Notes under the pieces: model-generated | The model's database searches: none | What the model saw: the letters and a program-made list of their open reading frames with translations, nothing else | Told to the model about the DNA's origin: nothing | Position numbers and translations under genes: made by a program | NCBI GenBank assembly: GCA_012798435.1 | Contig: JAAZNF010000028.1 | Location: 15,362 to 79,361, forward strand | Source: Myxococcales bacterium | GTDB taxonomy: Bacteria; Myxococcota; B64-G9 | Length of the DNA: 64,000 nt | Direction: 5' to 3' | Shown here: one piece after another, positions 6,241 to 46,060 of the stretch | Position numbering within the stretch: the stretch's first letter is position 1 | How the letters are laid out: every line of letters starts with the position of its first letter

Positions 6241-6282
6241 AGCGGCGGGATCGCTAATTTGCGCACCCGTGCCGGGGTTCCT

Positions 6283-6366
6283 GCCGAAGTGGCGGAACTG
6301 GTAGACGCGCTAGATTCAGGGTCTAGTGGGTTCACCCCCGTGCAGGTTCGAGTCCTGTCTTCGGCA
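6283..6366 (+). tRNA. tRNA-Leu (anticodon CAG), type II tRNA with long variable arm
   Basis: Acceptor stem GCCGAAG/CTTCGGC plus discriminator A. Anticodon stem CTAGA/TCTAG with loop TTCAGGG (anticodon CAG). Long variable arm TGGGTTCACCCCCGT. T-loop TTCGAGT. No encoded CCA. Confidence 0.85.
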
Positions 6367-6381
6367 TCCCCCCGGCACCTG

Positions 6382-15554: not shown

Positions 15555-15611
15555 GTCCGCTCCTTGACCCGTTGAACTGTGCCCGAAACGTATAGTGCCG
15601 CAGGTAAATAA

Positions 15612-23940: not shown

Positions 23941-24601
23941 GGTCCGCGCTCCCTCGCGTGGCAAGGTGGGTCAGAATGCGGTCGGCGTTCTTCACCGCTC
24001 GCCGCATCCACTCGGCGATGAGCTCCTCCTGCTCGGCCGCCGAGAGGTCGCCGTGGCGACCGAGCCGGCGCAGCCGCTCGCGCACGGCCACGGCCAGCGC
24101 CACGCCCGCGGCTACCGACACGTTGAAGCTGTCGCCGAAGCCGTACATGGGGATGCAGAAGAACCCGGCCGCGGCCTGGCTCGTCTCCCGCGAGGCACCG
24201 TCTTTCTCGTTGCCGAACACCAGGGCGAGCTTCTTCTCCCAGGGGAGGTCGTCCACCGGCCGCCCACCCGGGCGGGGATCGGCCACCCACAGCTCGAAAC
24301 CTTCCGCGCGCAGCGCCGCCACCGCCTCGAGCGGACTGGGGTGACGGTGGATACGGATCCATTTCTCGGTGCCCTGGGACACCTTGCGCCGCACCCGGAA
24401 GGGCTTGGCGCTCTCGATGACGTGCAGCTCCAGCACCCCGAAGCCGTCGCACGAGCGCACCGCCGCCGACAGGTTGTGGGGATCGTGCACCCCGTCCAGC
24501 ACCACCCGCAGGTTGCGGGTGCGCTGGCGCGCCGCTTCCCGCAGGCGCTCGATGCGCGCCGGCAGCAAGAAGGGCTCGAGCAGCGCGGCCGGGTCGTCCA
24601 T
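23909..24601 (-). CDS. SpoU/TrmH-family RNA 2'-O-methyltransferase
   Basis: LRVVLDGVHDPHNLSAAVRSCDGFGV...LVFGNEKDGASRE...CIPMYGFGDSFNVSVAAGVALA is the SPOUT knot motif set. Confidence 0.75.
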   Translation of the reverse strand: MDDPAALLEPFLLPARIERLREAARQRTRNLRVVLDGVHDPHNLSAAVRSCDGFGVLELHVIESAKPFRVRRKVSQGTEKWIRIHRHPSPLEAVAALRAEGFELWVADPRPGGRPVDDLPWEKKLALVFGNEKDGASRETSQAAAGFFCIPMYGFGDSFNVSVAAGVALAVAVRERLRRLGRHGDLSAAEQEELIAEWMRRAVKNADRILTHLATRGSADHEPSDEPLEE

Positions 24602-24708
24602 GGGGCGCACCATAATCGCCGGCCCCGGAACCTGTCAAGGCGGGACTCTCGCCAGCCTGCCCTACCAAATCCGTTGATCGCTCCGGGTACCGGGGGTATC
24701 ATGCGCCC

Positions 24709-26016
24709 ATGCCTCCCAAGCAGGTGAACAACTGCGACATCATCGGCGAGATCGGCATCGGCGGCATGGCGGTGGTGTACAAGGCGGTGCAGAATTCTCT
24801 CAACCGCCCGGTGGCCATCAAGGAACTCAAGGCCGAGTACGCCAAGGACCCGCAGCTCACCGCGCGCTTCATCCGCGAGGCCACCGCCCTGGCCGCCTTG
24901 CAGCACGAGAACATCGTGCAGATCCACGACTTCGTGAAGGAAGGCGACTCCTTCCGTATGATCATGGAGTACGTGGACGGCATCGATCTCTTTGACGTGC
25001 TGGACCGGGTGCACCACCTACCGCCCGAAGTGGGGGCCATCGTGGGGTTCTTTCTGGCCTCGGCCCTGGAGTACGCCCACTACCACGGCATCATCCACCG
25101 CGACATCAAGCCCAGCAACATCATCATCTCGCGCAAGGGCGAGGTGAAGCTCATGGACTTCGGCATCGCCCGCGACGAGAACCTGGGCGACCTCACCCGC
25201 CCGGGCACCTCGCTGGGCACCCCGGCCTACATGTCCCCCGAGCAGATCATGGGGGTCCGGATCGACTTCCGCTCCGACATCTTCTCCTTCGGCATCGTGC
25301 TGTACCAGGCGCTCACCGGGCTGAAACCCTTCAGCGAGAGCGGCAACCGCAGCATCATGCACAAGATCCTGAACGGCGAGTTCGTGCGCCCGCGCCGGCT
25401 CAACCCCAACATCCCGCGCAAGCTGGAGAAGATCATCTTGCGCTGCCTGGCCCGCGAGCCCGACCAGCGCTACCGCTCGACCGGTGAGCTCCGGTTGGCG
25501 CTGGAGGCGTTCTTGATGAACCGGGTGCGGGGGAACTTCTCGGAGCGCCTGCTGGCCTACCTGGCTCACGCCAAGCTGGTGACCCGGGCCGAGGCCGAGA
25601 CCTTCGTCAAGCCCGCCGTGCTCGACGACCCCGACCTCATCCGCACCGACGACAACCTGCCACCGCCGCCGCGCCTCTCCACCGTGGCCGGGATCCAGGC
25701 CGGCCTGGGCGCGGCGCTGCTCCTGTGGGTGCTGCTGCTGCGCCTGGCCACCGGTCCGAGCGCCGCGGCGGCCTGCGGCGAGGGAGCCGGAGGCCCCCCC
25801 GGTGCCCTCAAGGTGGTGGCCTGGCCCTGGGCCGAGATCCACATCGATGGGGCGTTGGTGGAGACCACCCCGGTGGCGCGCAGCTTCTCGCTGGCTCCCG
25901 GCATACACGAGGTGGTGCTCAAGAACCCCCACTACAAGTCCGTGAAACGGCGCCTGCTCATCGAGCCGGGTCGGCTGCAGAAGCTCACGGTCACCCTCGA
26001 GCCCAGGAAGCCATGA
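24709..26016 (+). CDS. Ser/Thr protein kinase with C-terminal TM segment and PEGA domain
   Basis: GEIGIGGMAVVYKA, VAIKELK, HRDIKPSNIII, DFGIAR, GTPAYMSPE. C-terminal VVAWPWAEIHIDGALVETTP...HEVVLKNPHYKSVKRRLLIEPG is a PEGA-like beta-sandwich. Confidence 0.85.
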   Translation: MPPKQVNNCDIIGEIGIGGMAVVYKAVQNSLNRPVAIKELKAEYAKDPQLTARFIREATALAALQHENIVQIHDFVKEGDSFRMIMEYVDGIDLFDVLDRVHHLPPEVGAIVGFFLASALEYAHYHGIIHRDIKPSNIIISRKGEVKLMDFGIARDENLGDLTRPGTSLGTPAYMSPEQIMGVRIDFRSDIFSFGIVLYQALTGLKPFSESGNRSIMHKILNGEFVRPRRLNPNIPRKLEKIILRCLAREPDQRYRSTGELRLALEAFLMNRVRGNFSERLLAYLAHAKLVTRAEAETFVKPAVLDDPDLIRTDDNLPPPPRLSTVAGIQAGLGAALLLWVLLLRLATGPSAAAACGEGAGGPPGALKVVAWPWAEIHIDGALVETTPVARSFSLAPGIHEVVLKNPHYKSVKRRLLIEPGRLQKLTVTLEPRKP

Positions 26017-27065
26017 CCATGCGCGCGCTCACCTGCAAGACGACGCTTCTCCTCCTGCTGCTGCCCTGCGCCGCCGTCGCCCTCAACTACAAACCGCAAC
26101 CGGAGGAGAGCCTGTCCCGGGTGGCGCAGATGCACTACGGCGACGCGCGCAAGGTGGTGTACCTGCAGGCGGCCAACGGCCTGGGGGACGGAGACAACGT
26201 TCCCCGCGGCAACACCTTGTGGGTGCCCACGGTGTGGAAGTACCGCATCAAGAAAGGCGAGGACCTGGCCCAGATCGCCGGCCGCTACCTCAAGGACCCC
26301 AAGCGCGCCGATTTCGTGCTGTGGCTCAACCGCATCGGCGACCCCAAGGACATCAAGCCCGGGACCGAGATCCAGATCCCCTTCCTGCTCAACCACCGCG
26401 CCTCCGGCGCCCAGAGCCTGGCGGACGTCTCCCGCCGCTACTACTTCAACACCCGCCAGGCGCCGCTGCTCAAGAAGTTCAACGCCCGCAAGACGGACAC
26501 CCTGAAGGCCGGCGAGGTCATCCAGGTGCCCATCTACGATCCCGAGGCGGCGTTCGAGAAGGTCGCCGAAAGGGTGAAGGTCTTCAAGGAGCAGGAAGAG
26601 AGGGCCGCCAAGGCCGCCTTGAAGCTGGTCGCGAAACCCGGCCCCGCCCCGGCGCCGCCCGAAACCCCGCCGTCCCCGGCGGAAAGGCCCCAACCCGGCA
26701 CACCGCACGAGGCCCCGGCGGAGGGGCCCGAGCCGCCCGAGGAAGGCCCGGACGCTGCCAACGCCAAGCCGGCGCCGGAGGACAGCAAGCCCCTGGACGA
26801 TGCGACCGAGCTGTACCTGGCCGGAGACTTCGAGCTGGCGGCCGCCAACCTGTCGCAGCTGCTCGAGCAAAAGCCGCTCCCGCGTGAGGTCGAAGGCCGG
26901 GCGCGCGAGCTACTGGCCTCCTGCCTGGTGGCGCTGGACCGACCGGGCGAGGCCGAGCACGAGTTCGTGCGCCTGCTCATGATCGACCCCGAGCGCACCC
27001 TGGATGTCAAGACCACTTCACCCAAGATCCTCGAGGTCTTCCGCCGCGCCCGCGGCCGGCGCTGA
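26013..27065 (+). CDS. Secreted LysM-domain protein with Pro-rich linker and C-terminal TPR-like helical region
   Basis: ATG 26013 overlaps the upstream STK stop (ATGA). Signal MTMRALTCKTTLLLLLLPCAAVA. LysM-like YRIKKGEDLAQIAGRYL and a second (TLKAGEVIQVP). Confidence 0.65.
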   Translation: MTMRALTCKTTLLLLLLPCAAVALNYKPQPEESLSRVAQMHYGDARKVVYLQAANGLGDGDNVPRGNTLWVPTVWKYRIKKGEDLAQIAGRYLKDPKRADFVLWLNRIGDPKDIKPGTEIQIPFLLNHRASGAQSLADVSRRYYFNTRQAPLLKKFNARKTDTLKAGEVIQVPIYDPEAAFEKVAERVKVFKEQEERAAKAALKLVAKPGPAPAPPETPPSPAERPQPGTPHEAPAEGPEPPEEGPDAANAKPAPEDSKPLDDATELYLAGDFELAAANLSQLLEQKPLPREVEGRARELLASCLVALDRPGEAEHEFVRLLMIDPERTLDVKTTSPKILEVFRRARGRR

Positions 27066-27177
27066 GCCGGCGCCCCACCGCTCTTGAAGCAGCATCGAGC
27101 GTACCTTTGCCTGGACCGGCGGCTTGGTCTACAATCCGCCGGGTGGCGCTGAACCTTCTCGCGGAGGGCTGCCGCCG

Positions 27178-29139
27178 GTGCGCCTGTCGCTGGCCACCAA
27201 GATGTTTCTCGGCTACACCCTGCTCATCCTGATGTTCGGGGTGGTGTCGGTGTACGTGCTGGGTCGGTTCTCGGCGGAGCGCGCCCAGCTCAACCAGCTC
27301 AACCGCCAACTCCTGCCCCTGGACCGCCTGGCGGCGGAGATCGAGGCGCTCAGCGACGCCTCGGTGCGCGGGCTCACCGACATCCTGCGCGCCGACCCCG
27401 CCACTCGTCTCACCCTGCTGCAGAGCGGCCGGCGCTCCTTTCAGCGCAGCATGCAGCTGCGCATCCGTCAAGCCCAGGGCATCCTGGGACGCAGCGACAC
27501 AGCCTCCCTGCCGGACAAGCAGCGGCGTTTCCTCGACGAGGTCGGCACCCGGCTGGAGCAGATCCGCGAGCAGAGCGAGGCGCTGGACCGGACGCTGGCC
27601 GAAATCGAGAAGCGTTGGCTGGAGCCCGAGTCGTTCGAGCCCCCCCCGGGCCCAGAGGCCGAGATCGAGCCCGCCGGCCGCCGCCTGCTGCGCGACGTGC
27701 GCCTGATGAAACTGGCTCTCAAAAACCGCATCACCGCTCAGGTGCTGGACCTGGAGCAGCAGGAAGGCACGGCCACCGCGGTGGTGCTGTGGCTCTCGCT
27801 CCTGTCGGTGGCGGTCGGGGCGCTCATCGTGCTGCTGTCCTTCCTCGCCCTGCGGCCGGTGCAGCGGCTCTCCGAGGCGGCGCGCCGCATCTCCCAGGGA
27901 GATTTCTCCGCCAGCGTGCCCACGGGCGCCCGCGACGAGATCGGCTTTCTGGCGACGGAGTTCAACCGCATGGCGCGCGCCCTGGAGGCGCGGGAGGCCG
28001 AGAGCCGGCGCCAGCAGGAGCAACTGGCCCTGGTCAACCGTCAGCTCAAGCAGTCCAGTCTGGACCTGGAGCTCTTGAAGCTCTACAACGAGAACATCAT
28101 CCGCTCCATCCACCACGGCATCCTGGTGTGCGACGTGCGCGGGTTCGTCACCACCCTCAACCCGGCGGCCGAGACCCTGTTCGGGTTGCAGCCGGCGACC
28201 GCGGTGGGAAAGCCGCTGTCGGAGTTGCCGCTGGCCGGCACCTGCGCCGAGCTGCTCCGGAACTGGAGCCGGGTGCTGAACGAGAAGGCCGGCTTGTTCT
28301 TCGAGGCCCTGACCCTGCCCGGCCCCGGCGAGCGCCTGGTGGATCTGCGGGCGGCGCCGCTGTTCGGCGCCGACGGCAACGCCCAGGGCGTGCTGATCCT
28401 GGGGGAGGAGGTGACCGAGAAGGTGCGCACCAAGCAGGCGCTCATCCAGTCGGAGCGCCTGGCGGCCATCGGCCGCATGTCGGCCATGGTGGCGCACGAG
28501 ATCCGCAACCCCCTGAGCGCCATCGGGCTCAACGCCGAGTTGCTGGAGGAGGAGCTGCTGCGCCTGGAGCGCGGCGTCGGCGACGAGCCTCGCAAGCTGC
28601 TGGCCTCCATCAGCGGGGAGGTGGAGCGGCTCACCCAGGTCACCGACGAGTACCTCCGCTTCGCCCGGCTGCCCAAACCCCACCTGGCGCCGGAGGACCT
28701 CAACGCCATCGTCCGGGACCTGCTGCGCTTCCTCGGCCCGGAGATGACGCGGGCCAAGGTGGAGGTTCATCTGGAGCTGGACGCGGCTACCCCTCCCCTG
28801 CCCCTGGACGAATCCCAGGTGCGCCAGGCGCTGATCAACCTGATCAAGAACTCCGTGCAGAGCATGCCCGAGGGCGGCACGCTGCGCATCCGCACCGACC
28901 GTAGCGACGGGACCGTCCGCCTGCGCATCCAGGACTCCGGGCGGGGCATGGACGCGGCCTGCCTGGAGCGCATCTTCGATCCCTTCTTCAGCACCCGCGA
29001 CGGGGGCACCGGGCTGGGGCTCACCCTGACCCAGCAGATCGTCTTGGAGCACGGCGGCCGTATCCGCTGCGAGAGCGCGCCGGGCCAGGGCACCTGTTTC
29101 GTGGTCGAATTCCCTTCGCCGGGGCCGGCGGCGGGATAG
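27178..29139 (+). CDS. Sensor histidine kinase (2 TM, HAMP, PAS, HisKA, HATPase_c)
   Basis: GTG 27178 with GGAGGG RBS 9 nt upstream. TM MFLGYTLLILMFGVVSVYVLG. HAMP PVQRLSEAARRISQGDFSA. PAS (IIRSIHHGILVCDVRGFVT). H-box AIGRMSAMVAHEIRNPL. G-boxes (DSGRGM, GTGLGLTL). The long antisense ORF 27007..29592 is rejected. Confidence 0.8.
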   Translation: MRLSLATKMFLGYTLLILMFGVVSVYVLGRFSAERAQLNQLNRQLLPLDRLAAEIEALSDASVRGLTDILRADPATRLTLLQSGRRSFQRSMQLRIRQAQGILGRSDTASLPDKQRRFLDEVGTRLEQIREQSEALDRTLAEIEKRWLEPESFEPPPGPEAEIEPAGRRLLRDVRLMKLALKNRITAQVLDLEQQEGTATAVVLWLSLLSVAVGALIVLLSFLALRPVQRLSEAARRISQGDFSASVPTGARDEIGFLATEFNRMARALEAREAESRRQQEQLALVNRQLKQSSLDLELLKLYNENIIRSIHHGILVCDVRGFVTTLNPAAETLFGLQPATAVGKPLSELPLAGTCAELLRNWSRVLNEKAGLFFEALTLPGPGERLVDLRAAPLFGADGNAQGVLILGEEVTEKVRTKQALIQSERLAAIGRMSAMVAHEIRNPLSAIGLNAELLEEELLRLERGVGDEPRKLLASISGEVERLTQVTDEYLRFARLPKPHLAPEDLNAIVRDLLRFLGPEMTRAKVEVHLELDAATPPLPLDESQVRQALINLIKNSVQSMPEGGTLRIRTDRSDGTVRLRIQDSGRGMDAACLERIFDPFFSTRDGGTGLGLTLTQQIVLEHGGRIRCESAPGQGTCFVVEFPSPGPAAG

Positions 29140-29157
29140 AGCTTTGGAGAGAGGCAC

Positions 29158-30564
29158 GTGGCCGTCGGTCGCGAGTTCGGACCCTACACCCTGCTGCGCA
29201 AGCTGGCGCGCGGCGGCATGGCCGACATCTTCCTGGCCCGGCGCCGCCACGAGGTGGGGGACGAGCTGTGCGTCATCAAGATGATGCTGCCCCACACCCT
29301 GCGTAATCCACGTGCCATCAAGCTCTTCCTGGGCGAGGCCCGCCTCATCACCCACCTCGAGCACCCCAACATCGTGCGCATCCAGGTGCTGGACCGGGTG
29401 GACAACTACTTCTTCATCGCCATGGAGTACATCCCCGGCGAGACCGCCTTCCACCTCCTGCACCAGGCCTGCGAGGCGCGCCGGCCGGTGCGGCCCGAGG
29501 AGGCCGCCGGCATCGTGTGGCAGACCTGCCAGGGCCTGCACTACGCCCACGAACTGTGCGACGATCGGGGCCAGCCACTGCGGCTGGTGCACCGCGACAT
29601 CAGCCCCAGCAACCTGATGATCTCCTACGACGGCCAGGTGAAGATCCTCGACTTCGGCATTGCAGCCGCGGTGAGCCGCTCGCGCGATCTGCCACCGAAC
29701 CGCACCCTGGGCAAGTACGGCTACATGTCGCCCGAGCAGTACCGTGGCCAGGTGGTGGACCGCCGCTCGGACATCTTCTCGCTGGGCGTGGTGCTGTGGG
29801 AGCTGTGCACCGGCAGCGCGCTCTTCCCGGGGAGCGATCCGGCGCAGATCCGGCGCGCCGCGCTGGAGGGCCGCATCCTCACGCCGCGCGAGGTCAACCT
29901 GAACGTCCCCGAGGCCCTGGAGAGCGTGGCGATGGTGGCGCTGGAGCGGGATCCCAAGCGCCGCTTCCGCGACGCCGCCGAGATGGGCCTGGCCCTGCAG
30001 GAAGCGTGCGGCGAAGCCCTGGCGGACGAGGCCAGGCTGTCGCAGATGTTGCGGGAGATATTCGGTCCGGAGCGGGAGCGCATGTCGCGCGCCGGCGAGG
30101 TAGGCGCCGAGCTGGAACTCGAGACCTTGCTGTTCGACGATCTGGGAACCAGCGATGGGGAGGCGCTCCGTCCGGAAGCTCAGCCGCTGCGGCGCCGCGT
30201 CTTGCGGCCGGCGACGCTGGCCTGGCTCATCCTCTCGCTACTGCTCATCGGCGCGGCGCTCGCGCTACGCCTGCTGGTGGACGCCATGGACCCGGTGCGC
30301 CCACCGCGCACCGAGCCGGCGCCTCAAGAGGGCACCATCCAGGTGGATTCCAACCCCAGGGGCGCGGCCATCTTCCTCAACGGCCGCGACACCGGCCTGG
30401 TCACCCCGGCCGAGCTGCGCCGCATCCCGCTGGCCACGGATCAGGACATCGAGCTGCGCCGGGCGGGATATATGCCGTTCCGCAGCCGGGTGCGGCTGGA
30501 GAACGATGCGCCTCGCCGCATCAGCGCCGCGCTGGTGCGAGAACCCAAGGCGCCGCGCAAATGA
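29158..30564 (+). CDS. Ser/Thr protein kinase with C-terminal TM segment and PEGA domain
   Basis: GTG start 18 nt after the HK stop with GGAGAGAGG RBS. LARGGMADIFLA, VIKMM, HRDISPSNLMIS, DFGIA, GYMSPEQ. C-terminal TIQVDSNPRGAAIFLNGRDTGLVTP...LRRAGYMPF is PEGA. Confidence 0.85.
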   Translation: MAVGREFGPYTLLRKLARGGMADIFLARRRHEVGDELCVIKMMLPHTLRNPRAIKLFLGEARLITHLEHPNIVRIQVLDRVDNYFFIAMEYIPGETAFHLLHQACEARRPVRPEEAAGIVWQTCQGLHYAHELCDDRGQPLRLVHRDISPSNLMISYDGQVKILDFGIAAAVSRSRDLPPNRTLGKYGYMSPEQYRGQVVDRRSDIFSLGVVLWELCTGSALFPGSDPAQIRRAALEGRILTPREVNLNVPEALESVAMVALERDPKRRFRDAAEMGLALQEACGEALADEARLSQMLREIFGPERERMSRAGEVGAELELETLLFDDLGTSDGEALRPEAQPLRRRVLRPATLAWLILSLLLIGAALALRLLVDAMDPVRPPRTEPAPQEGTIQVDSNPRGAAIFLNGRDTGLVTPAELRRIPLATDQDIELRRAGYMPFRSRVRLENDAPRRISAALVREPKAPRK

Positions 30565-33443
30565 GGCGCGTCCGACCGCTCGCCGCATGTCTGCTGTTGC
30601 TCGCCGGGATCCTCGTCTCCCCGGGCGCGCGGGCGCGCGATCCCGCGCTGGAGTGGCGGTCGCTGCGCACGCCCCACTTCGTGGTGCACTTCAATCCAGA
30701 GGCGGAGGCGCTGGCGCAGCGGGTGGCGCGCACCGCCGAGGCCGCCCTGGCGCGCGTGGCCCGGGAGCTCGGCCACCTCCCGCGCGAGCCCATCCAGATG
30801 GTGATCTCCGACGAGGGCGACTCGGCCAACGGCATGGCCACGGTCATCCCCTACAACACGGTCCACGTGTTCGCCTCGCCGCCGGACGATCTCAGCGTGC
30901 TGCACGATTACGACGACTACCTGGGTGTCTTGCTGCTGCACGAGCTCAGCCACGTGGTGCACATGGACACGGTCTCGGGCGTGCCCGCCCTGATCAACGC
31001 CATCTTCGGCCGCACCGTCTTCCCCAACGGCGCCCAGCCGGGCTGGTTCATCGAGGGCGTGGCGGTACGCAACGAGTCGGCGCTGTCTTCGGCCGGGCGC
31101 GTCCGCTCGTCGCTGTTCCGGATGGTCCTGCGCACCGCGGCCCTGTCCGGCACCTTCCCCGCCATCGACGAGCTCTCCGGCTGGATGCGACGCTGGCCGC
31201 AGGGGAACGCCCCCTACCTGTTCGGCGGGTTCTTCCTCGATTTTCTGGCGCGGCACCATGGCTCGGACGCGCTTCGCCAGTTGTCCCACCTCATGAGCGG
31301 CCGGCTGATCCCCTGGACCCTCAACCTGAACGCCCGGGAGGTTCTGGGCGCCGACTACCCGGCGCTGTGGGACGAGTGGCGGCGCGAGGTGGAGGACGAG
31401 GCGAAAGGCCTGCTCTCCAGGCTCGAACTCGACGGCCTGACCCCCTTTCGGCGCCTGACCGAGCGCGCCCAAATGCAGCACGCGCCGCGCTTCTCGCCCG
31501 GCGGCGCGCGGGTGCTGTACGCCAGCCTTTCGACGTCCGCCTGGCCCGCCTGGCGCCTGGTGGGCCCGGACGGGTCGGAGGACCGGCTCCTGTTCGAATC
31601 GAACGACGCCGGTGGCGCGGACTTCCTCCCGGACGGCACGGCGGTGATCTTCTCCCAGTCCGAGGTGGAGCGGGGGTTCTACGTCTTCTTCGACCTGTAC
31701 CGTTACGACCTAACGAGCGGCCGGCAGCAGCGGCTCACCCAAGGCCTGCGGGCCCACTCCCCGGACGTCTCGCCGGACGGACGGCGGGTGGTGTTCGTGT
31801 CCCAGCGCCTGGGCCGGACCCGGCTGGGCCTGCTCGAGCTCGAAAACCCCACCCAGGTGCGCTGGCTCCTCGAGCCCTCGCTGGACGAGGCGTTGCACAC
31901 GCCGCGATTCTCCCCCGATGGAAAGCAGGTGGTGTTCTCCATGGCCGTACCAGGCGGCGGCCGGAACCTGTGGCTGCTCGACCTCGCCGGCGGCGCACCT
32001 CGGCGGCTCACCCATGGAGCGGCGCTGGACCTCGACCCGGTGTTTTCCCCGAACGGAACTCAGGTCTTCTTCGCCTCGGACCGCACCGGCGTGTTCAACT
32101 TGTGGAGCCTGGATCTCATGAGCGGCGCCTTGCGCCGCATCACCAACCTCGCCACCGGCGCCTTCTCGCCGGAACCCGCCCCGGACGGCTCGTGCCTGGT
32201 GTTCGTGGTGTACGGCCCGCGCGGCTTCGACCTGGCGCGCATCGACGCACCCTTCCGGGAGTACCCTGGAGGCCCCGCGCGCGCCGCCCGTCCACCCGCG
32301 GAGGACCTGGCGGCCTCCGGCGAGCGCTACCCGGTGGAGGGTTACTCGCCCCTCGAGACACTGTGGCCGCGAAGCTGGCTGCCGCTCTTCGGCAGCGATC
32401 CCGACGGCATGACCGTGGGGGTACTGGTCGGCGGAACAGACGTTTTGGACTTCGCCTCGTACCAGGCATCGCTCTCGGCGGGTGTGGTGGGGGGCCGGCT
32501 CTCCTGGGACATCAGCGCCACCCTGCATCTCGTATATCCGTACCTCTACCTGTTCCACAGCCGGCGGGCCTTCGAGGCCGGGCACGACGCCGTGCTCGAC
32601 GACAAGGGCTTTTCGGTGGTGAAGACCGAGCACGTCGGCTTCGCGGAGCTCTCCTTCCCTTTCTCCTCGATGCGGCAGCGCCATTTTCTGTTTTTCAACT
32701 ATGACTTTCACCACTTCGACCGGGAGACGCCGCTCGTCTTGCGCCCGGACGACGCCGCCCCGACCTTTCCAGACGACCGGCGGCGGGCCTGGCTGGGCAT
32801 GGGCTGGTCCTTTTCGAGCCTGCGCTACTACATCGACTCCATCAGCGCCGAACAAGGCCTGTGGGCCTCGGTGTCGCTGCGCTACAGCCACCCGCAGATC
32901 GGTAGCGGCCTTTCGCTAGTCGAGGGCAGGCTCGCCCTGCGCGGCTATCTTCCGGTGTGGCCGGAGAAGAACCACGTCCTGGCGCTGGGGTTCAACGCCG
33001 GCGCCGCGGTGGGCGACGATCGCCGCCGCCCGGTGTACTGGCTGGGCGGGCTACCGCTGCGCGATCCGCTACAGGACTCCTACTTCGGCTACCGCTACGC
33101 CGACGTGTACCTGCGCGGCTACGACCCCTGGGCTTTTTCCGGCTACGCCTACGCCCTGGGCTCGGCCGAGTACCGCCTGCCGCTTTGCGACATCGAGCGG
33201 GGTGTGCTGACCCTGCCGGTGTACGCCGGGCGCCTGCACGCGGCGGCGTTCGTCGACGTCGGGGCGGCGGCCTTTTCGCTCTCGGACATCCCGTCCCGTC
33301 TCAAGGTCGGCTTGGGCGCGGAGCTGCGATTGGACCTGATGCTCGCCTACTACTTTCCCATGACCGTGCGCCTGGGATACGCCCGCGGCCTCATGGCCGA
33401 GGGCGTGGACAACGTCTTTCTGGTGCTGGGCAACGGGTTCTGA
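30561..33443 (+). CDS. Multi-domain outer-membrane protein: HExxH zinc-metalloprotease-like domain + TolB-like (PD40/WD40-like) beta-propeller + C-terminal Omp85/surface-antigen-like beta-barrel
   Basis: ATG 30561 overlaps the STK stop (ATGA). Signal MRRVRPLAACLLLLAGILVSPGARA. LLLHELSHVVHMD ... WFIEG (gluzincin-like). Repeated FSPDG(K/R)xVVF and FSPNGTQVFFASDRTG propeller blades. The final residues GYARGLMAEGVDNVFLVLGNGF end in a terminal aromatic typical of OM beta-barrels. Confidence 0.65.
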   Translation: MRRVRPLAACLLLLAGILVSPGARARDPALEWRSLRTPHFVVHFNPEAEALAQRVARTAEAALARVARELGHLPREPIQMVISDEGDSANGMATVIPYNTVHVFASPPDDLSVLHDYDDYLGVLLLHELSHVVHMDTVSGVPALINAIFGRTVFPNGAQPGWFIEGVAVRNESALSSAGRVRSSLFRMVLRTAALSGTFPAIDELSGWMRRWPQGNAPYLFGGFFLDFLARHHGSDALRQLSHLMSGRLIPWTLNLNAREVLGADYPALWDEWRREVEDEAKGLLSRLELDGLTPFRRLTERAQMQHAPRFSPGGARVLYASLSTSAWPAWRLVGPDGSEDRLLFESNDAGGADFLPDGTAVIFSQSEVERGFYVFFDLYRYDLTSGRQQRLTQGLRAHSPDVSPDGRRVVFVSQRLGRTRLGLLELENPTQVRWLLEPSLDEALHTPRFSPDGKQVVFSMAVPGGGRNLWLLDLAGGAPRRLTHGAALDLDPVFSPNGTQVFFASDRTGVFNLWSLDLMSGALRRITNLATGAFSPEPAPDGSCLVFVVYGPRGFDLARIDAPFREYPGGPARAARPPAEDLAASGERYPVEGYSPLETLWPRSWLPLFGSDPDGMTVGVLVGGTDVLDFASYQASLSAGVVGGRLSWDISATLHLVYPYLYLFHSRRAFEAGHDAVLDDKGFSVVKTEHVGFAELSFPFSSMRQRHFLFFNYDFHHFDRETPLVLRPDDAAPTFPDDRRRAWLGMGWSFSSLRYYIDSISAEQGLWASVSLRYSHPQIGSGLSLVEGRLALRGYLPVWPEKNHVLALGFNAGAAVGDDRRRPVYWLGGLPLRDPLQDSYFGYRYADVYLRGYDPWAFSGYAYALGSAEYRLPLCDIERGVLTLPVYAGRLHAAAFVDVGAAAFSLSDIPSRLKVGLGAELRLDLMLAYYFPMTVRLGYARGLMAEGVDNVFLVLGNGF

Positions 33444-33448
33444 GCGAA

Positions 33449-33859
33449 TCAGCGCCAGGCGGCGGGCCGCGCCACCCGGAACACCCAGCCGCGCAGCAAC
33501 GGATAGGTGAAGCACACCCACACCAACGCCAGGCTCACCAGGTGCAACAGGCGGGGATCGCCGCCGGTGACCAGGCGCAGCAGCCACCAGGTCAGGGTGG
33601 CCAGGCTGACGGCCGAGAGCGCGGTCACGGCATAGCGGCCGGCCTGGCTCCACAACCCACCGCCGCATCCTTGGAACGCGAAGCGGCGGTTCAGGGTGAA
33701 GTTGCTCACCGCCCCGAGCGCCCCACACACCCAGCGGGCGACCAGCAGGGCTCTGCCGCCGGCCAGGAGCAGGGTGCACAGGCAGAACAACCCGGCGTCC
33801 ACGGCGGTCGAGAGCAAGCTCACCGACAGGCTTCGCAGGGTCAGGCGGCCCGGCGCCAT
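33449..33859 (-). CDS. GtrA-family small polytopic membrane protein (flippase-associated)
   Basis: 136 aa with four hydrophobic helices. FTLNRRFAFQG motif is typical of the GtrA family. The start overlaps the stop of the upstream deacetylase-like gene. Confidence 0.55.
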   Translation of the reverse strand: MAPGRLTLRSLSVSLLSTAVDAGLFCLCTLLLAGGRALLVARWVCGALGAVSNFTLNRRFAFQGCGGGLWSQAGRYAVTALSAVSLATLTWWLLRLVTGGDPRLLHLVSLALVWVCFTYPLLRGWVFRVARPAAWR

Positions 33860-34611: not shown

Positions 34612-35429
34612 CGGGCACCTTCCAGGGCCAGAGTTTCCCAGGCGGCCAGGCGAAGCCGCAGCGCCTGCCGCATCGTCTCCAGGACGAGCTGCGCGACGTC
34701 CCGCCCGCCGATGTGGCTCCTGGAGACGCCGTAGCGGCAGCGGACAGACGCGGCGGCGGCCCGGATGTCGCGATCCTGCTCTCGCGAGTATTCGGCCAGC
34801 GCGGCCAGCGACTCGTGTTCGAGGGCGTATCGGCCCCGCTCGGGCAGGCGCTCGGAGAGCACGTCGGCCAGGCGCTTGCTATACAGGCGCAGGCCGGACT
34901 GCACGTCCCCGAAGTCCACACCGCCGATCCACGCGAAGCAGCGGTTGACCAGCCAGTTCGAGAGCCGGCGCTCGATCGGCATTTCGAGGCGCTCGCGCGC
35001 TCCGATCACCAGCTCGTAGCCCTGGCGCACGAGTTCGCACAGGCGCGGTAGATCCGCCGGATCGTGCTGGCCGTCGCCGTCGAGAAGGGCCACGGCGTCG
35101 AGGTCCATCGGACGCAGGACCTTCAAGCCGCGGCGGATCGAGCCCTGCTTTCCCAGGTTCACCTCGCATCGTTCCCAACACAGCGGCGTCCCGGTGCGGC
35201 AGCGAGCCTCCTCTCGCTCGAGGACCTCGATGGTGTCGTCGCTGGAGGCGTCGTCCACCACCAGGATCACCGAGGGCTCCACGGCCCGGCAGGCCCGGAT
35301 CACGTCCGGCAGGTGAGCGGCCTCGTTATAGGCCGGGATGAGCACGGCCAGGCGCAGGCCCGCGATCTTGGATGGCGCATCTTTCTCTTTGTGCTGCTGG
35401 GTACTGGAGATGACGGTGCAGCGAATCAT
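34608..35429 (-). CDS. Family-2 glycosyltransferase (GtrB/DPM1-like polyprenyl-phosphate sugar transferase)
   Basis: LAVLIPAYNEAAHLPDVI, VDDASSDDT, LLDGDGQHDP (DxD). RBS GGGAGGTGA before ATG 35427-35429. Confidence 0.8.
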   Translation of the reverse strand: MIRCTVISSTQQHKEKDAPSKIAGLRLAVLIPAYNEAAHLPDVIRACRAVEPSVILVVDDASSDDTIEVLEREEARCRTGTPLCWERCEVNLGKQGSIRRGLKVLRPMDLDAVALLDGDGQHDPADLPRLCELVRQGYELVIGARERLEMPIERRLSNWLVNRCFAWIGGVDFGDVQSGLRLYSKRLADVLSERLPERGRYALEHESLAALAEYSREQDRDIRAAAASVRCRYGVSRSHIGGRDVAQLVLETMRQALRLRLAAWETLALEGAR

Positions 35430-35726
35430 GATCACCTCCCTTGTGATGCGGCGCAAGCCGCGACGAATCACGAATTCAAGCCCCGTGCCACGGATGACGC
35501 GTCGCGTTGCCAAGATGGCATCGGGCTGTTTTGCCTTGGTTTTCTGACCTGGGAAAGCGGTCGGAATTCCGACCGGCGCTGCTCAGGTGCGAACGCGGTT
35601 GCCCAGATCGGCCCGGCACCGCAACCGGGCCTTCCGATTCGAGACGGTTTCATGGCGTGGATTGCCGCCGGCGACCGCCCCGTGCTAGATTGGCGCCCGG
35701 ACGGAAGAGGAAAAGGAGGCCTGGAC

Positions 35727-37088
35727 ATGAGCGGACGCTTCCTGTGCATTTCGATCGCGGCGCTCTCGCTATCGGTGTTCTCTTGCGACTCGTCGAGCGG
35801 CGTACGGCCGGTGAACTGCGAGCTCGACACGGATTGTCCCGAGGGCCAGGTGTGCAACCCCTACCGGGGAGTGTGCCTCACGGGCTGCCGCTCCCACGAA
35901 GAATGCCGCCGCGGCGAGATCTGCAACCCCTTCACCAGCCAGTGCATCATTGGCTGCCTCGAGTCCAGCGAGTGCCCCGCCGGGAAGATCTGCAGCGTCT
36001 TCACCGCGCAGTGCGTGCCGGGCTGCGACGAGGACGCCGACTGCCCGGAGGGCCAGCTGTGCAGCCCCATCACCGCGAGTTGCACAAACCCCTACACCCG
36101 CTGCCGCAGCGACGCCGACTGCCCCTCGGGCACCCGCTGCCAGGTGGAGAGCGGCGCCTGTCAGGTAGTGACGGTGGAGTGCACCGCGGACCGGGAGTGC
36201 CCGGTCGGCAAGCGCTGCCGTGACAACCTGTGCGTCACCGCCACCTGCGCCACCGACGCCGAGTGCCTCAACGGCGAGGAGTGTGAAAACGGCGTGTGCC
36301 AACCGCGCAGCGGCTGTATCACGGATTCCGAGTGCCTCAACGGCTTTCACTGCGAGAACGGGCAGTGCGTGGCCAACCCCGCCGGCTGCCAGCGCGACAG
36401 CGACTGCCCGCAAGGCCAGGTGTGCCAGGATGGCGACTGCGTGCCCGCGCAGACCGGCTGCACCCAGAACAGCGACTGCCCCGCGGGCCAGGTGTGCAAC
36501 CTGTTCACGCGCCAGTGCCAGGTGCAGAACACCGCCAACTGCCAGAGTGACGCCGACTGTCCGAGCGGGCTCACCTGCTCCTTCGGCTTCTGCACCGGTT
36601 GCTCATCCGCCACGGACTGCTTCCCCGGCCAGCAGTGCATCCTGGGGGCCTGCGTCGGCAACGCCACCACCACCTGCCAGACGGACGCCGACTGTCCCTC
36701 GGGCAAGCGCTGCCAGGACGGCCAGTGCGTCTCCGACAGCGGCTGCCAGAGCGACGCCGACTGCTCGTTCGGGCTCCAGTGCCAGTTCGGATTCTGCATC
36801 GGCTGCACCAGCGACGCCCAGTGCAAGCCCTCCGAGCAGTGCGTGCTGTACGCCTGCATCCCGCGCCTCGACAACCCCTGCGACAACGTGACCTGCCCGG
36901 CCGGCGAGCTGTGCGACCCGGAGAACGGCTCGTGCTACCCCGAGGACGGCACCTGCGTGGACGACACCGACTGCCGCGCCGGCCAGACCTGCAACGTCCT
37001 CCACTACTGCTCCGGCTGCCAGGCGGACGCCGACTGCCGCTCGGGCCAGCGCTGCGTCCTGCAGACCTGCATCCCCATCGGAGGCTGA
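35727..37088 (+). CDS. Cys-rich repeat lipoprotein (about 20 tandem [D/E]xDCPxGxxCxxxxxxC modules)
   Basis: RBS AAAAGGAGG. Lipobox MSGRFLCISIAALSLSVFSC. Repeats ELDTDCPEGQVCNPYRGVCLTGC / HEECRRGEICNPFTSQCIIGC / SSECPAGKICSVFTAQCVPGC and so on. The track ORF 35064.. is an upstream junk extension. Confidence 0.7.
   Translation: MSGRFLCISIAALSLSVFSCDSSSGVRPVNCELDTDCPEGQVCNPYRGVCLTGCRSHEECRRGEICNPFTSQCIIGCLESSECPAGKICSVFTAQCVPGCDEDADCPEGQLCSPITASCTNPYTRCRSDADCPSGTRCQVESGACQVVTVECTADRECPVGKRCRDNLCVTATCATDAECLNGEECENGVCQPRSGCITDSECLNGFHCENGQCVANPAGCQRDSDCPQGQVCQDGDCVPAQTGCTQNSDCPAGQVCNLFTRQCQVQNTANCQSDADCPSGLTCSFGFCTGCSSATDCFPGQQCILGACVGNATTTCQTDADCPSGKRCQDGQCVSDSGCQSDADCSFGLQCQFGFCIGCTSDAQCKPSEQCVLYACIPRLDNPCDNVTCPAGELCDPENGSCYPEDGTCVDDTDCRAGQTCNVLHYCSGCQADADCRSGQRCVLQTCIPIGG
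35800..37080 (+). repeat. Coding tandem repeat array (about 60-66 bp period) of Cys-rich modules
   Basis: Recurring gac tgc cc[n] [gag]gg[c] cag ... tgc codon pattern across the gene. Confidence 0.7.
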
Positions 37089-41474: not shown

Positions 41475-44400
41475 CTACTTGCGCCGCTTGATGCCGAGCA
41501 GGGACAGGCCGAGCAGCATGAGCAGGCCCGAGCCGCCGGAGGCTCCGGTGCCACACCCGCAGCCGCCGCCGCTGGTCTCCTCCTTGGGGCAGGCGACCTG
41601 GTCGTCGCTGTCGGTCAGCCCGTCGCAGTTGTTGTCGAGCTGATCGCCGCAGATCTCGGCGGTGTTCGGGTGCACGCCCTGGCGGGTGTCGTCGCAGTCG
41701 TTGCCGCAGGGCGGTTTCGCGTAGCCGTCGCCGTCGTCGTCGGGACAGAGGCAGTTCTTCTCGCGGCACTCCTGCCCGTTGCCGCACTCGATGCCGCAGC
41801 GGCCGCAGTTGGCCTCGTCGCTGGTGAGGTCCGCCTCGCAACCGTTGGCGGTCTGCCCGTCGCAGTTGCCGAAGTCGGCCTCGCAGCGGGTGATGACGCA
41901 GGCGGAGGCGTCGCAGGCCGACACCGCGTGCGCGAGGGCGCAGGAGGTGCCGCAGGCGCCGCAGTTCTGGGCGTCGCTGCGGGTGTCGACCTCGCAGCCG
42001 TCAGCCGCGTCACCGTTGCAGTCGGCGTAGCCGATGTCGCAGCTTCCCACCACGCACTGGCCCAGGTGGCAAGCAGCGGTGGCGTGCGATAGCCGGCATA
42101 AAACCCCGCAGGCGCCGCAGTTCTGGGCGTCCTCACCGGTGTGCACCTCGCAGCCGTCGGCGAGCGCGTGGTTGCAGTCGGTCCAGCCCTCGTCGCAAGC
42201 GGCGATGCCGCAGTAGCCACCGACGCAGTTGGCGGTGGCGTGCGCCGCTTCGCAGCGCCTGCCGCAGCTCCCGCAGTTCTCGGGATCGGTGCGGTAGTTG
42301 CTTTCGCAACCATCGGCCGGGTCGTTGTTGCAGTTGTTGAAGCCGCCGATGCAGCGATCGAGCTGGCACTGCCCACCCACGCACAGCGCCGAGGCGTTGG
42401 CGAAGGTGCAGGCATTGCCGCACTGGCCACAGTTTTCCGGATCCGAGCCTACCAGCGACTCACAGCCGTTGAAACCGGCCCCGTCGCAGTTGCCCCAACC
42501 CGTGGCGCAGGAGTCGATGGCGCAGTCCACGCCCTCGCAGTGCCCGGTGGCGTGGGGCAGACTGTTGCAGGTGCGGCCGCAAGCGCCGCAGTTCGCCGGA
42601 TCGTCCACCACCGGCTGCTCGCAGCCGTTGGCGGCCGCATGGTCGCAGTCGCCCCAACCCACCTCGCAGCTCGCCACCCGGCACTCGCCCGCCGCGCAAC
42701 CGGCGCTGGCGTGGTCGAGCGTGCACACGTTGCCGCACGAACCGCAGTTCTGCGGATCGGTGCTGGTCTGGACCTCGCATCCGTCGGACGGGCTGTCGTT
42801 GCAGTTGGCATATCCGCTGGCGCAGTTCCCCAACTCGCAGGTGCCGTTGTTGCACACGCCCGAGGCATGGTCGTAGGTGCAGGCGCTGCCGCAGGCGCTG
42901 CAGTGCTGGGCGCTCGAGGTGAGGTCGGTCTCGCAGCCGTTGGTGGCCACGCCGTCGCAATCGCCCCAGCCGGCCAGACAGCTCGTGCCGGGCTGGCATG
43001 TGCCACCGACGCACTGGCTGTCCATGTGCGGGTAGCCGCACACCACACCGCAACCACCGCAGTTGTCGACGTCGCTCTGGACCGAGGCCTCGCAACCGTT
43101 CGCCGGCAGACCGTCGCAGTCGCCGTAGCCGGCCTCGCAGGCACCGAGACAGGCGCGCACCATGTCGATGGTGAAGCCGTCGTAGGCGACCGAGCTGTCG
43201 CTGGTGAAGTTCACCTTCACGGTCGAGCCGGGGACGTTCGGCGACCAGAAGGGCTCGTACTGCCCGGTATAGGTCGCGATCTCGGAATCGTTACCGTCGA
43301 GCACGCGCACGAAGTCCCAGTTGCGCTCGACGTTGAGCATCGAGAAATGCACCGACATCACGCTGGCGCCGGGCCGGGTGATGGTCCAGGTGTTGTTGTA
43401 GTTGTGAGGATAGGGGTGTGGCGACTGCACGTCCTCTGCGCTGTCCTGGCAGGTGGAGGGGTAACACACGCCGTCGATACAGGAGTGACCGGTGGCGTGC
43501 GGCAGGTTGCACACGTTTCCGCAGGTGCCGCAGTTCTGCACGTCGGCGGTGACGTCCCGCTCACAACCGTTTCCGACGTTGCCATCGCAGTCGCCCCAAC
43601 CCGCCTCGCAGGTGCCGACGGTGCACTGGCCGCCGGCGCAGCCGCCGCTGCCGTGGGGCACCGGCCCGCAGGTGGGGTTGCCGCAGCCGGTCAGGCCGCA
43701 GTTCTGCGGGTCGATGAGCGGGTTGCTCTCGCAACCATCGGCAAAGTCGTTGTTGCAGTCGAACCAGCCGCTCTCGCAACCGGCCACCTGGCACATGCCG
43801 GCCACGCACTGGTTGACGGCGTGCGGGGCGGCGCAGGCGTGGCCGCACCAGCCGCAGTTCTGTGTGCTGCTTGCGGTGTTCGTCTCGCAGCCGTCGGGGC
43901 CGGTGGCGGGATCGTCGTCGCAGTCGCCCAGGCCCGGCGGGCAGCGCCCGGCGTCGCACCAGGTGATCGCATCGGCCACGAAACCGTTTCGGTTCACCGA
44001 GCTGTCGCTGGTGAGCCGCAGCTTGATGGTGTTTCCGGTCACCACGGGAGTGCTGAAGGCGCCCAGCGCACCCGAGTAGCTCGCCACCTCGACGTCGTTG
44101 GCGTCCAGCACGTGCACGAAGTCGTACCCCTGCTCGGTGTCGAAGGACGCAAAGTGTACCCCGATCACCACCGCGCCCGGCTGGGTGATGGTCCAGGTGT
44201 AGTCGAAGTTGTCGGCGTAGGGGTGAGCGCTCTCCACCACGGGGTTGAGCGCCGTCTGGTTGACCGCGACGACGCGGGCCCGGTCGGGGTTGGAGATGAG
44301 GCCGGTCGAGTCGGTCACGGTGAGGATGCCCTGGTACTCGCCGCACACGTCGGCGTCGAAGGTCGGCGCCGGAGCGGTCGTGCTGGAGAGGACGGCCGAG

Positions 44401-45968: not shown

Positions 45969-46060
45969 GCGTGTCTCCTTCTCTTCATAAGGATTTTCTG
46001 CCCTCGCCCTTATTGAGCTTCTATCCACATTCCACCCCCATGGACAAGAGAAATCTTTTT

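Follow-up and report, generated by a model that had tools for sequence, protein, structure and literature searches.

Does the placement of a gene for a large exported protein directly behind genes for envelope sensors say anything about what this protein does? This question is raised by a cluster of five genes in a stretch of 64,000 nucleotides (nt) from Myxococcales bacterium (GTDB lineage Bacteria; Myxococcota; B64-G9; GenBank assembly GCA_012798435.1, contig JAAZNF010000028.1, positions 15,362 to 79,361 of the forward strand), which is referred to below as the window and in whose coordinates all positions are given. The cluster spans 24709-33443 and consists of five consecutive genes on the + strand, here designated g1 to g5:

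g1, 24709..26016, + strand: Hanks-type Ser/Thr kinase with a PEGA domain
g2, 26013..27065, + strand: exported LysM-TPR protein
g3, 27178..29139, + strand: sensor histidine kinase; the open reading frame (ORF) opens at TTG 27124
g4, 29158..30564, + strand: second Ser/Thr kinase with a PEGA domain
g5, 30561..33443, + strand: exported protein of 960 amino acids (aa), predicted to combine a gluzincin domain, a six-bladed PD40 propeller and an Omp85 barrel

We suggest, with a probability of about 0.6, that these genes form two sub-operons and that g5 is an outer-membrane-anchored, periplasm-facing zinc peptidase which is made together with envelope sensors. A preliminary description of the locus, made from the sequence, had assigned domains to all five products. 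These assignments hold throughout, with Pfam matches for Pkinase, PEGA, LysM, HAMP, PAS_4, HisKA, HATPase_c, PD40 and Omp85, and with a weak TPR signal in g2. For g5, the PD40 and Omp85 parts of the annotation were recovered by Pfam, whereas the HExxH region matched no Pfam model and is placed among the metallopeptidases by conservation and predicted fold instead.

The N-terminal peptidase domain of g5

The features of g5 are located as follows:

30561..30635, + strand: signal peptide (aa 1-25) with a predicted signal-peptidase I site between ARA and RD
30636..31460, + strand: gluzincin-fold metallopeptidase domain (aa 26-300), assigned by predicted fold and motif conservation
30939-30953, + strand: HELSH (H127-H131), the HExxH motif
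31044-31076, + strand: WFIEGVAVRNE, holding E165 and E172, the candidate third-ligand block
31461..32240, + strand: TolB-like PD40 beta-propeller (aa ~301-560; Pfam PD40, 80.9 bits)
32241..32366, + strand: Pro-rich linker (aa 561-602, 42 aa), predicted coil
32367..33440, + strand: 16-strand Omp85 barrel (aa 603-960), predicted by structural model, Foldseek and Pfam
33114-33122, + strand: RGY of loop 6, between strands 11 and 12
33249-33263, + strand: FVDVG of strand 13, the FxDxG motif

The signal peptide was recognized from sequence and hydropathy, and homologues display the same N-terminal pattern, followed by a conserved DPxLxW...TPHF. A lipoprotein reading (LAAC, aa 7-10) was rejected, because the Cys lies too near the N-terminus for a lipobox and because the AxA site follows the hydrophobic core. 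A database representative reported as 100% identical to g5 (P0001) has Ala at aa 20, where the window has Ser (nt 30618-30620); hence the stored sequence and that of the window differ. Among named genomes, the closest is a metagenome-assembled genome (MAG) of an uncultured Myxococcales bacterium (CAZLNM010000147.1), with 93% identity.

A database search with g5 gave 944 matches. Almost all of the top 120 extend over the full length (916-1,019 aa), at 31-54% identity; conservation was assessed on an alignment of 118 full-length homologues (>900 aa) taken from these 120. Seven residues of the N-terminal domain are invariant in 118/118 sequences (H127, E128, H131, E165, E172, R180 and R191), and three more are nearly so (H134 in 114, D136 in 110 and Y219 in 116). 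An AlphaFold2 model of aa 1-335, computed from a 101-sequence alignment, reached a mean predicted local distance difference test (pLDDT) score of 92.2. When compared to the Protein Data Bank (PDB) by Foldseek, the top matches of this model were clostridial collagenase of family M9, M1 enzymes (LTA4H, IRAP, ERAP1) and M61, with E values of 1.8e-5 to 1e-3. The domain is thus predicted to adopt a gluzincin (thermolysin-like two-lobe) fold.

In this model, HELSH lies on a helix at 120-136, and E165 on a helix at 161-174. E165 is part of a W-x-x-E-G-x-A-x-x-x-E block that resembles those of M1 and Peptidase_MA_2. In M1 peptidases the block 'WLNEGFA...E' provides the third zinc ligand, and its spacing, W(-3) E(0) G(+1) A/T(+3) E(+7), is the same as in g5. 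E165 is therefore a candidate third zinc ligand, an assignment by homology. The earlier proposal of a metallopeptidase around HExxH is borne out by the predicted gluzincin fold and by this invariant candidate.

Membership in a defined peptidase family does not follow. Since no Pfam or NCBIfam peptidase model was matched, the domain was assigned by fold and motif; the M1 models of both collections and Peptidase_MA_2 (PF13485) gave no match in g5. The GxMEN exopeptidase motif of M1 is absent, and a conserved D-S-A-N-G-S-A (aa 87-93) occupies the corresponding strand; g5 is therefore not a member of M1. The distance from H131 to E165 is 34 residues, compared to 18-19 in M1. Identity to gluzincins of clan MA(E) (M1 with LTA4H, ERAP1 and tricorn factor F3; M9 collagenases; M30 lugdulysin) amounts to 8-17%.

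Propeller, linker and barrel

Six blade signatures of the form (S/L)P(D/G/N)G, at aa 312, 356, 404, 451, 496 and 540, indicate that the central part of g5 is probably a six-bladed TolB-like propeller. By sequence, the whole protein matched only TolB and S9 propellers among PDB chains, with TolB as the best match (E ~1e-17). The NCBIfam TolB model (TIGR02800) scored 125 bits against a cut-off of 343, with the propeller part alone aligned, and g5 is therefore TolB-like in its propeller only: it lacks the N-terminal domain of TolB, and tol/pal genes are not adjacent to it. The likeness to the PD40 propellers of TolB and tricorn lies in the six PD40 blades; homologues of g5 carry precomputed Pfam matches to Tricorn_N and Tricorn_2nd.

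The preliminary description had expected a beta-barrel at the C-terminus, and a 16-strand Omp85 barrel is indeed predicted there. Pfam Omp85 (PF01103) scores 27.2 bits on the whole of g5 and 30.0 bits on its C-terminal 380 aa (gathering score 24). An AlphaFold2 model of aa 575-960 (pLDDT 91.7) displays exactly 16 long strands, and its top Foldseek matches are the barrels of TamA and BamA (E 3e-10 to 1e-7). Conservation in the alignment falls on the loop and strand that are characteristic of such barrels. R852 and G853 of loop 6 occur in 118/118 homologues, 113 of which have Y and 5 of which have F as residue 854; the strand-13 motif is kept as F897 in 112, D899 in 116 and G901 in 115 of the sequences. 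The triplet E870-Y-R872 is conserved among the homologues as well. The chain ends in Phe, and the terminal residue is aromatic in 116/118. With the PF01103 match, the 16 modelled strands, and the loop-6 and strand-13 motifs, all in the canonical layout, g5 is placed in the Omp85 superfamily.

The likeness to BamA and TamA thus comprises the 16-strand barrel, RGY/F in loop 6, FxDxG in strand 13 and the C-terminal aromatic residue. In contrast to these proteins, g5 carries a predicted peptidase and a propeller at its N-terminus and no POTRA domain, and structural alignments give ~13-18% identity. No POTRA match was found in g5 by Pfam at E values up to 10, and the 42 residues that precede the barrel are predicted coil. 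That the active site is strictly conserved, and the gate motifs of Omp85 likewise, speaks for an active enzyme attached to a functional barrel.

A large family with a history

The combination of protease, propeller and barrel had been regarded as unusual for a single polypeptide. This view has to be given up, as the architecture is very large in number, conserved, present in Bacteroidota as well, and was catalogued in 2014 (Heinz & Lithgow 2014, PMC4104836). These authors defined a 'WD40-like Omp85' cluster among ten Omp85 subfamilies, with a PD40/TolB-like propeller N-terminal to a PF01103 barrel (PMC4104836). Their Table S3 gives for each member a BamA/TamA barrel match, a TolB match and a 'best aminopeptidase hit', with 1z5h, 4kxd, 4fgm, 4ar1 and 3qnf as templates of the latter; Sorangium, Anaeromyxobacter, Myxococcus, Rhodothermus, Caldithrix and Geobacter are among the sources of these members (PMC4104836). 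Their Tables S2 and S3 together show the domain pattern that is seen in g5. Of these templates 4fgm, 4ar1 and 3qnf recur in our own searches, and the proteins of 1z5h and 4kxd recur as 1z1w and 4kx7. We find no structural difference between g5 and this cluster, of which it is an ordinary member. New with respect to the 2014 survey are the explicit invariant active-site residues, the 16-strand topology with its motif map, and the lineage-specific placement behind kinase genes. A paper on the outer-membrane proteome of Myxococcus xanthus does not mention the family.

The size of the family is also apparent from searches with aa 1-305 alone, which matched 5,706 cluster representatives (clusters formed at 50% identity) at E values up to 1e-3, and 1,104 at up to 1e-30. 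Among the best 150 of these matches most are 945-1,030 aa long and carry the domain at the extreme N-terminus; the shorter ones could represent fragments of contigs. Many homologues of g5 have a precomputed PF01103 match. Single-protein scans of genome contigs and of metagenome contigs found one close relative each, along with distant matches of the Bacteroidota type.

A member from Pedobacter psychroterrae (NZ_SJSL01000007.1) illustrates the spread of the family. This protein of 1,043 aa has the same three parts as g5, with HELVH, WMIEGMAE, five PD40 stretches, LIRGYE and FFDAG, and is colinear with g5 over aa 1-553 (E 1e-14). Its N-terminus scores 31.2 bits with Peptidase_MA_2 (E 2.5e-7; gathering score 32.4) and 26.1 bits with BSP (PF04450; gathering score 23.8). 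The Pedobacter gene lies 92 nt downstream of a gene on the same strand for an 819-aa protein, PBP1A-type as judged from its translation alone (locus L009, 5750-11433). The g5 homologue of the Chondromyces locus L003 has genes for FtsEX, for an M23 peptidase and for a transpeptidase within 6 kb. These neighbours in Pedobacter and Chondromyces provide a hint that the context of the family is the cell wall or the envelope.

Gene junctions and operon structure

Real genes were told from spurious ORFs by codon-position GC in this window of ~69% G+C. The five ORFs on the + strand have a GC content at third codon positions (GC3) of 0.90-0.94, which is of the coding type and is lacking in the overlapping antisense and alternative frames; the five genes are real. 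Long antisense ORFs (e.g. 27007-29592, minus strand) were dismissed as high-GC artefacts on the same measure.

The order of the genes and the junctions described earlier can be read directly in the sequence. The stop codon of g1 and the start codon of g2 share ATGA at 26013-26016 (gccATGAcc), and those of g4 and g5 share ATGA at 30561-30564 (aaATGAgg). The TAG of g3 at 29137-29139 is followed by a ribosome-binding site, GGAGAG, and by the GTG of g4 at 29158, which leaves a gap of 18 nt. For g3 itself, GTG 27178, located 8 nt behind GGAGGG, is a likelier start than TTG 27124; the gap between g2 and g3 is then 112 nt, and this junction is not tight.

Two promoter-like sites of the sigma-70 type bear on the cluster:

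24674..24702, + strand: TTGATC-17-TATCAT, in the divergent intergenic region between SpoU and g1
27107..27135, + strand: TTGCCT-17-TACAAT, within the gap between g2 and g3

Over 24400-33700 (9.3 kb) three sites of this kind were observed, with 0.4 expected; two of the three stand back to back between SpoU and g1, and the third is that in the g2-g3 gap. The -10 hexamer TATCAT ends 7 nt ahead of ATG 24709, the earliest start that is possible in the frame of g1. Hence, the mRNA from which g1 is translated may have little or no leader.

The gene order was compared across loci of relatives, sorted by the identity of their g5. Linkage is kept in six loci with g5 identities of 46-93%, and is absent from eight at 32-42%. 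Five of the linked loci are arranged as follows:

L012, g5 identity 80%: whole neighbourhood syntenic
L008 (uncultured Myxococcales MAG), g5 identity 93%: g4-g5 overlap kept
L001, g5 identity 53%: two genes and one opposite-strand gene inserted between g2 and g3
L002, g5 identity 51%: one opposite-strand gene and one further gene inserted between g2 and g3
L006, g5 identity 46%: g1, g2, g3 and g5 contiguous; g4 absent

The conservation of five genes in relatives, which the preliminary description had called for as a check, is therefore found in part: the cluster is full in L001, L002 and L012, and L006 has it without g4. In L008 and P0018 only g4 or its Pkinase domain is visible beside g5, with L008 beginning 36 nt into an ORF and P0018 being a protein without a locus. 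The 4-nt overlap of g1 and g2 is kept in L001 and L006. In the window, L001, L002, L006 and L008, at most 17 nt separate g5 from the kinase gene ahead of it, or the two share 4 nt (the window, L002, L008). Outside the cluster, the window, L001, L002 and L006 have different genes. The most conserved member of the cluster is g1, with 69% identity. The inserts between g2 and g3 (L001, 2331-6444; L002, 4089-6518) encode large secreted proteins with Beta_helix, a MopE Cu-binding motif and LTD, together with small opposite-strand ORFs, and this junction looks like an insertion hotspot.

The eight loci without linkage place their g5 homologue in the following settings:

L003 (Chondromyces) and L004, distant g5: fmt, a hypothetical or PilZ gene, then g5
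L005 and P0026, distant g5: rpoN, rapZ, a GNAT gene, then g5
L015 and L016, g5 identity ~38%: an alpha/beta-hydrolase gene, then g5
L007 and L017, distant g5: other contexts

In L015 (7099-10862) the alpha/beta-hydrolase gene overlaps g5 by 4 nt, and in L016 (7027-12102) the two are separated by 8 nt. L016 also has a gene for a 410-aa Pkinase protein without PEGA, 7 nt after g5, which we regard as unrelated and within chance for kinase-rich genomes. The linkage to kinase genes is confined to one Myxococcales lineage and is not a property of the g5 family.

The locus had been described as a single operon of five genes. This is doubtful, because the 112-nt gap between g2 and g3 contains a promoter-like site and because relatives have inserts at this position, some of them on the opposite strand. 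Two tightly coupled and conserved sub-operons, g1-g2 and g3-(g4)-g5, seem likelier on the gene arrangement. Likewise, g5 does not lie between two kinase genes as had been stated. It is the last gene of the cluster, and the next gene is a convergent one of the GtrA type.

The sensor proteins g1 to g4

Both Ser/Thr kinases are built alike. In g1 (Pkinase, 188 bits; PEGA, 22.2 bits with a gathering score of 20.8), a cytoplasmic kinase is followed by one transmembrane helix at aa 323-351 and a periplasmic PEGA domain at aa 375-433. In g4 (Pkinase, 133 bits; PEGA, 35.4 bits), the helix lies at aa 348-380 and PEGA at aa 392-461. PEGA is placed outside the cytoplasm in both because the single transmembrane helix separates it from the kinase domain. 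The kinase motifs of g1 are intact (VAIK35, HRDIKPSN130, DFG150, SPE176), and the catalytic Lys, HRDxxxxN, DFG and SPE are all present in g1 and g4 alike, from which both are assigned to the Hanks-type Ser/Thr kinases. They resemble PknB-type kinases in the Hanks kinase, the one transmembrane helix and the extracytoplasmic sensor domain, and differ from them in that the sensor is PEGA and not PASTA.

The g2 protein has a signal peptide, a LysM domain (33.2 bits, aa 77-123), a Pro-rich linker and a C-terminal TPR region whose matches are weak and under the Pfam cut-offs. Two further LysM-like repeats, judged by eye, flank the LysM domain. A literature search for PEGA kinases with LysM returned nothing relevant.

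The g3 protein is arranged as a first transmembrane helix, a periplasmic helical region of ~165 aa, a second transmembrane helix, HAMP, PAS (PAS_4), HisKA and HATPase_c, with no NCBIfam equivalog above cut-off. It has the kinase core of a two-component system, and a cognate regulator alongside is absent. Since no receiver domain is encoded within 20.6-38.9 kb of the window, g3 is regarded as an orphan kinase. The nearest receiver belongs to a GAF / HATPase / receiver hybrid kinase at 8835-10661 (- strand), directly downstream of a HEAT_2 gene on the same strand. This HEAT_2 gene (10662-15611, - strand) encodes a protein of 1,649 aa with a single HEAT_2 match.

Histidine and Ser/Thr kinases side by side are also known from mixed myxobacterial loci such as EspA/EspC with PktA5/PktB8. 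The NCBIfam models of EspA and EspC score 132-155 bits here, far under their cut-offs of 1,200-1,400, and orthology is therefore discounted. The theme of the envelope, which was raised in the preliminary description, remains a reasonable one, as all five products have an envelope-exposed part. Its idea of a surface-proteolysis signalling unit is a hypothesis.

Proposed role of g5

According to our preferred reading, g5 would be exported by Sec and cut after ARA, and its 16-strand barrel would be placed in the outer membrane by BAM. By analogy to BamA and TamA, the N-terminal parts of which are periplasmic, the N-terminal 560 aa of g5 with the gluzincin domain and the propeller would then reside in the periplasm, where the gluzincin domain may act as an active zinc peptidase. 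The propeller may bind or gate substrates, as suggested by tricorn, DPP-IV and prolyl oligopeptidase, and likely targets would be proteins or peptides of the envelope that are located on the inner side of the outer membrane. Since the g5 gene is placed directly behind sensor genes, peptidase and sensors would be made together in this lineage. The extracytoplasmic parts of the sensors (PEGA, LysM-TPR and the g3 loop) would share a compartment with g5, and any functional link would have to run via periplasmic domains, because g5 has no cytoplasmic part.

A further step would be that g5 has been recruited into an envelope-surveillance circuit, in which periplasmic proteolysis of a substrate associated with the outer membrane or the cell wall makes or removes a cue that is read by the PEGA domains of both Ser/Thr kinases, LysM-TPR and the histidine kinase. 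In its logic such a circuit would be analogous to DegS/RseP and BAM-RcsF, as a proteolysis-coupled envelope stress pathway. We consider this extension speculative and rather improbable. If true, it would be the first functional handle, since 2014, on an Omp85 subfamily that is very common and without known function. Short of this, a lineage in which g5 is translationally coupled to envelope sensor kinases offers a modest lead to the biology of the family. The set of five genes is largely an ordinary myxobacterial signalling cluster, and the lineage-specific placement of g5 is mildly interesting.

Several points weigh against our reading. The first 340 aa of g5 matched no peptidase family in Pfam and NCBIfam at E values up to 10. 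The operon structure was inferred from gene gaps and consensus matches only. The Omp85 barrel of PlpD is able to export its own N-terminal domain. Literature searches on Omp85 with PD40, propeller, metallopeptidase, TolB or Bacteroidota led to the 2014 survey only, and to no experimental work on a member of the family. Finally, no g1-g4 genes lie near g5 in the eight loci at 32-42% identity, and the linkage may therefore be a local gene order without function.

This last point leads to the possibility that adjacency to the kinases is meaningless, and that g5 is a stand-alone housekeeping envelope protein which happens to follow a signalling cluster in one lineage. Besides the eight loci, the missing g4 of L006, the very large number of Ser/Thr kinases in myxobacteria, which makes chance neighbours common, and the lack of a cytoplasmic part of g5 that a kinase could phosphorylate all speak in its favour. 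However, the spacing of at most 17 nt or the 4-nt overlap recurs wherever the kinase gene is present in the five loci compared, and the cluster holds down to 46% identity of g5 while its flanks change. We regard this explanation as a real possibility, somewhat short of an even chance. The lack of a Pfam peptidase match in g5 speaks for the idea that the N-terminal domain is a zincin-like binding module devoid of catalytic activity. However, all 118 homologues, at 31-54% identity, keep HExxH, E165 and E172, which is typical of a working active site and makes this idea very unlikely.

The remaining alternatives give the barrel an active part. The protein may be a self-exporting surface protease similar to type Vd, with the barrel moving peptidase and propeller to the cell surface for the degradation of, e.g., prey or matrix. 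The loop-6 RGY and the strand-13 FxDxG are kept and have not decayed as in an inert anchor, the Pro-rich linker of 42 aa between passenger and barrel would be flexible, and myxobacteria secrete many proteases. PlpD offers a parallel in that an enzyme domain stands N-terminal to an Omp85 barrel in one polypeptide. On the other hand, PlpD has a patatin (lipase) passenger, surface-exposed, and a POTRA domain, whereas g5 has a putative zinc peptidase with a propeller, no detectable POTRA and a putative topology; its passenger would include a closed propeller of 260 aa, and the family is widespread in non-predatory phyla and in housekeeping-like contexts (fmt, rpoN-rapZ, PBP1A). Hence, although self-export has been raised for another Omp85-enzyme fusion by Heinz & Lithgow (PMC4104836), it appears unlikely for g5. 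A role in the assembly or quality control of outer-membrane proteins is also conceivable, with a barrel like that of BamA or TamA, a propeller scaffold like BamB or TolB, and a peptidase that clears stalled substrates, i.e. BamA, BamB and BepA in one chain. The conserved motifs associated with the lateral gate of Omp85 proteins would fit, but POTRA domains for the receipt of substrates are missing, the similarity to BepA falls far short of that to M1, M9 and M30 and reflects the shared zincin core only, and no BAM or TAM partner genes were seen near g5 in any locus read. This role seems improbable to us, and a periplasm-facing peptidase made with envelope sensors remains our preferred reading.

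Neighbouring genes and further observations

The genes around the cluster are unrelated to it. Upstream lie genes for UvrD, a Pro_CA_2 protein, a TPR protein and the divergent SpoU methylase, and downstream a convergent set of GtrA, DUF2334 and GT2 genes that ends 5 nt after g5. Scans with Rfam and for tRNA found no RNA gene within the five-gene region; in the whole window the sole RNA gene by ARAGORN and Rfam is a tRNA-Leu(CAG) at 6282-6369 (+ strand).

Two further proteins of the window deserve mention. A 1,599-aa S8 subtilase with a fervidolysin-like prodomain, PKD, CUB and MopE metal-binding motifs is encoded at 41475-46274 (- strand). At 35064-37088 (+ strand) lies a gene for a protein of 674 aa with Cys-rich Dickkopf_N (66 bits), a module of eukaryotic type, and DUF7107; in L016, too, a Dickkopf_N protein is encoded at a distance of ~7 kb from the homologue of g5.

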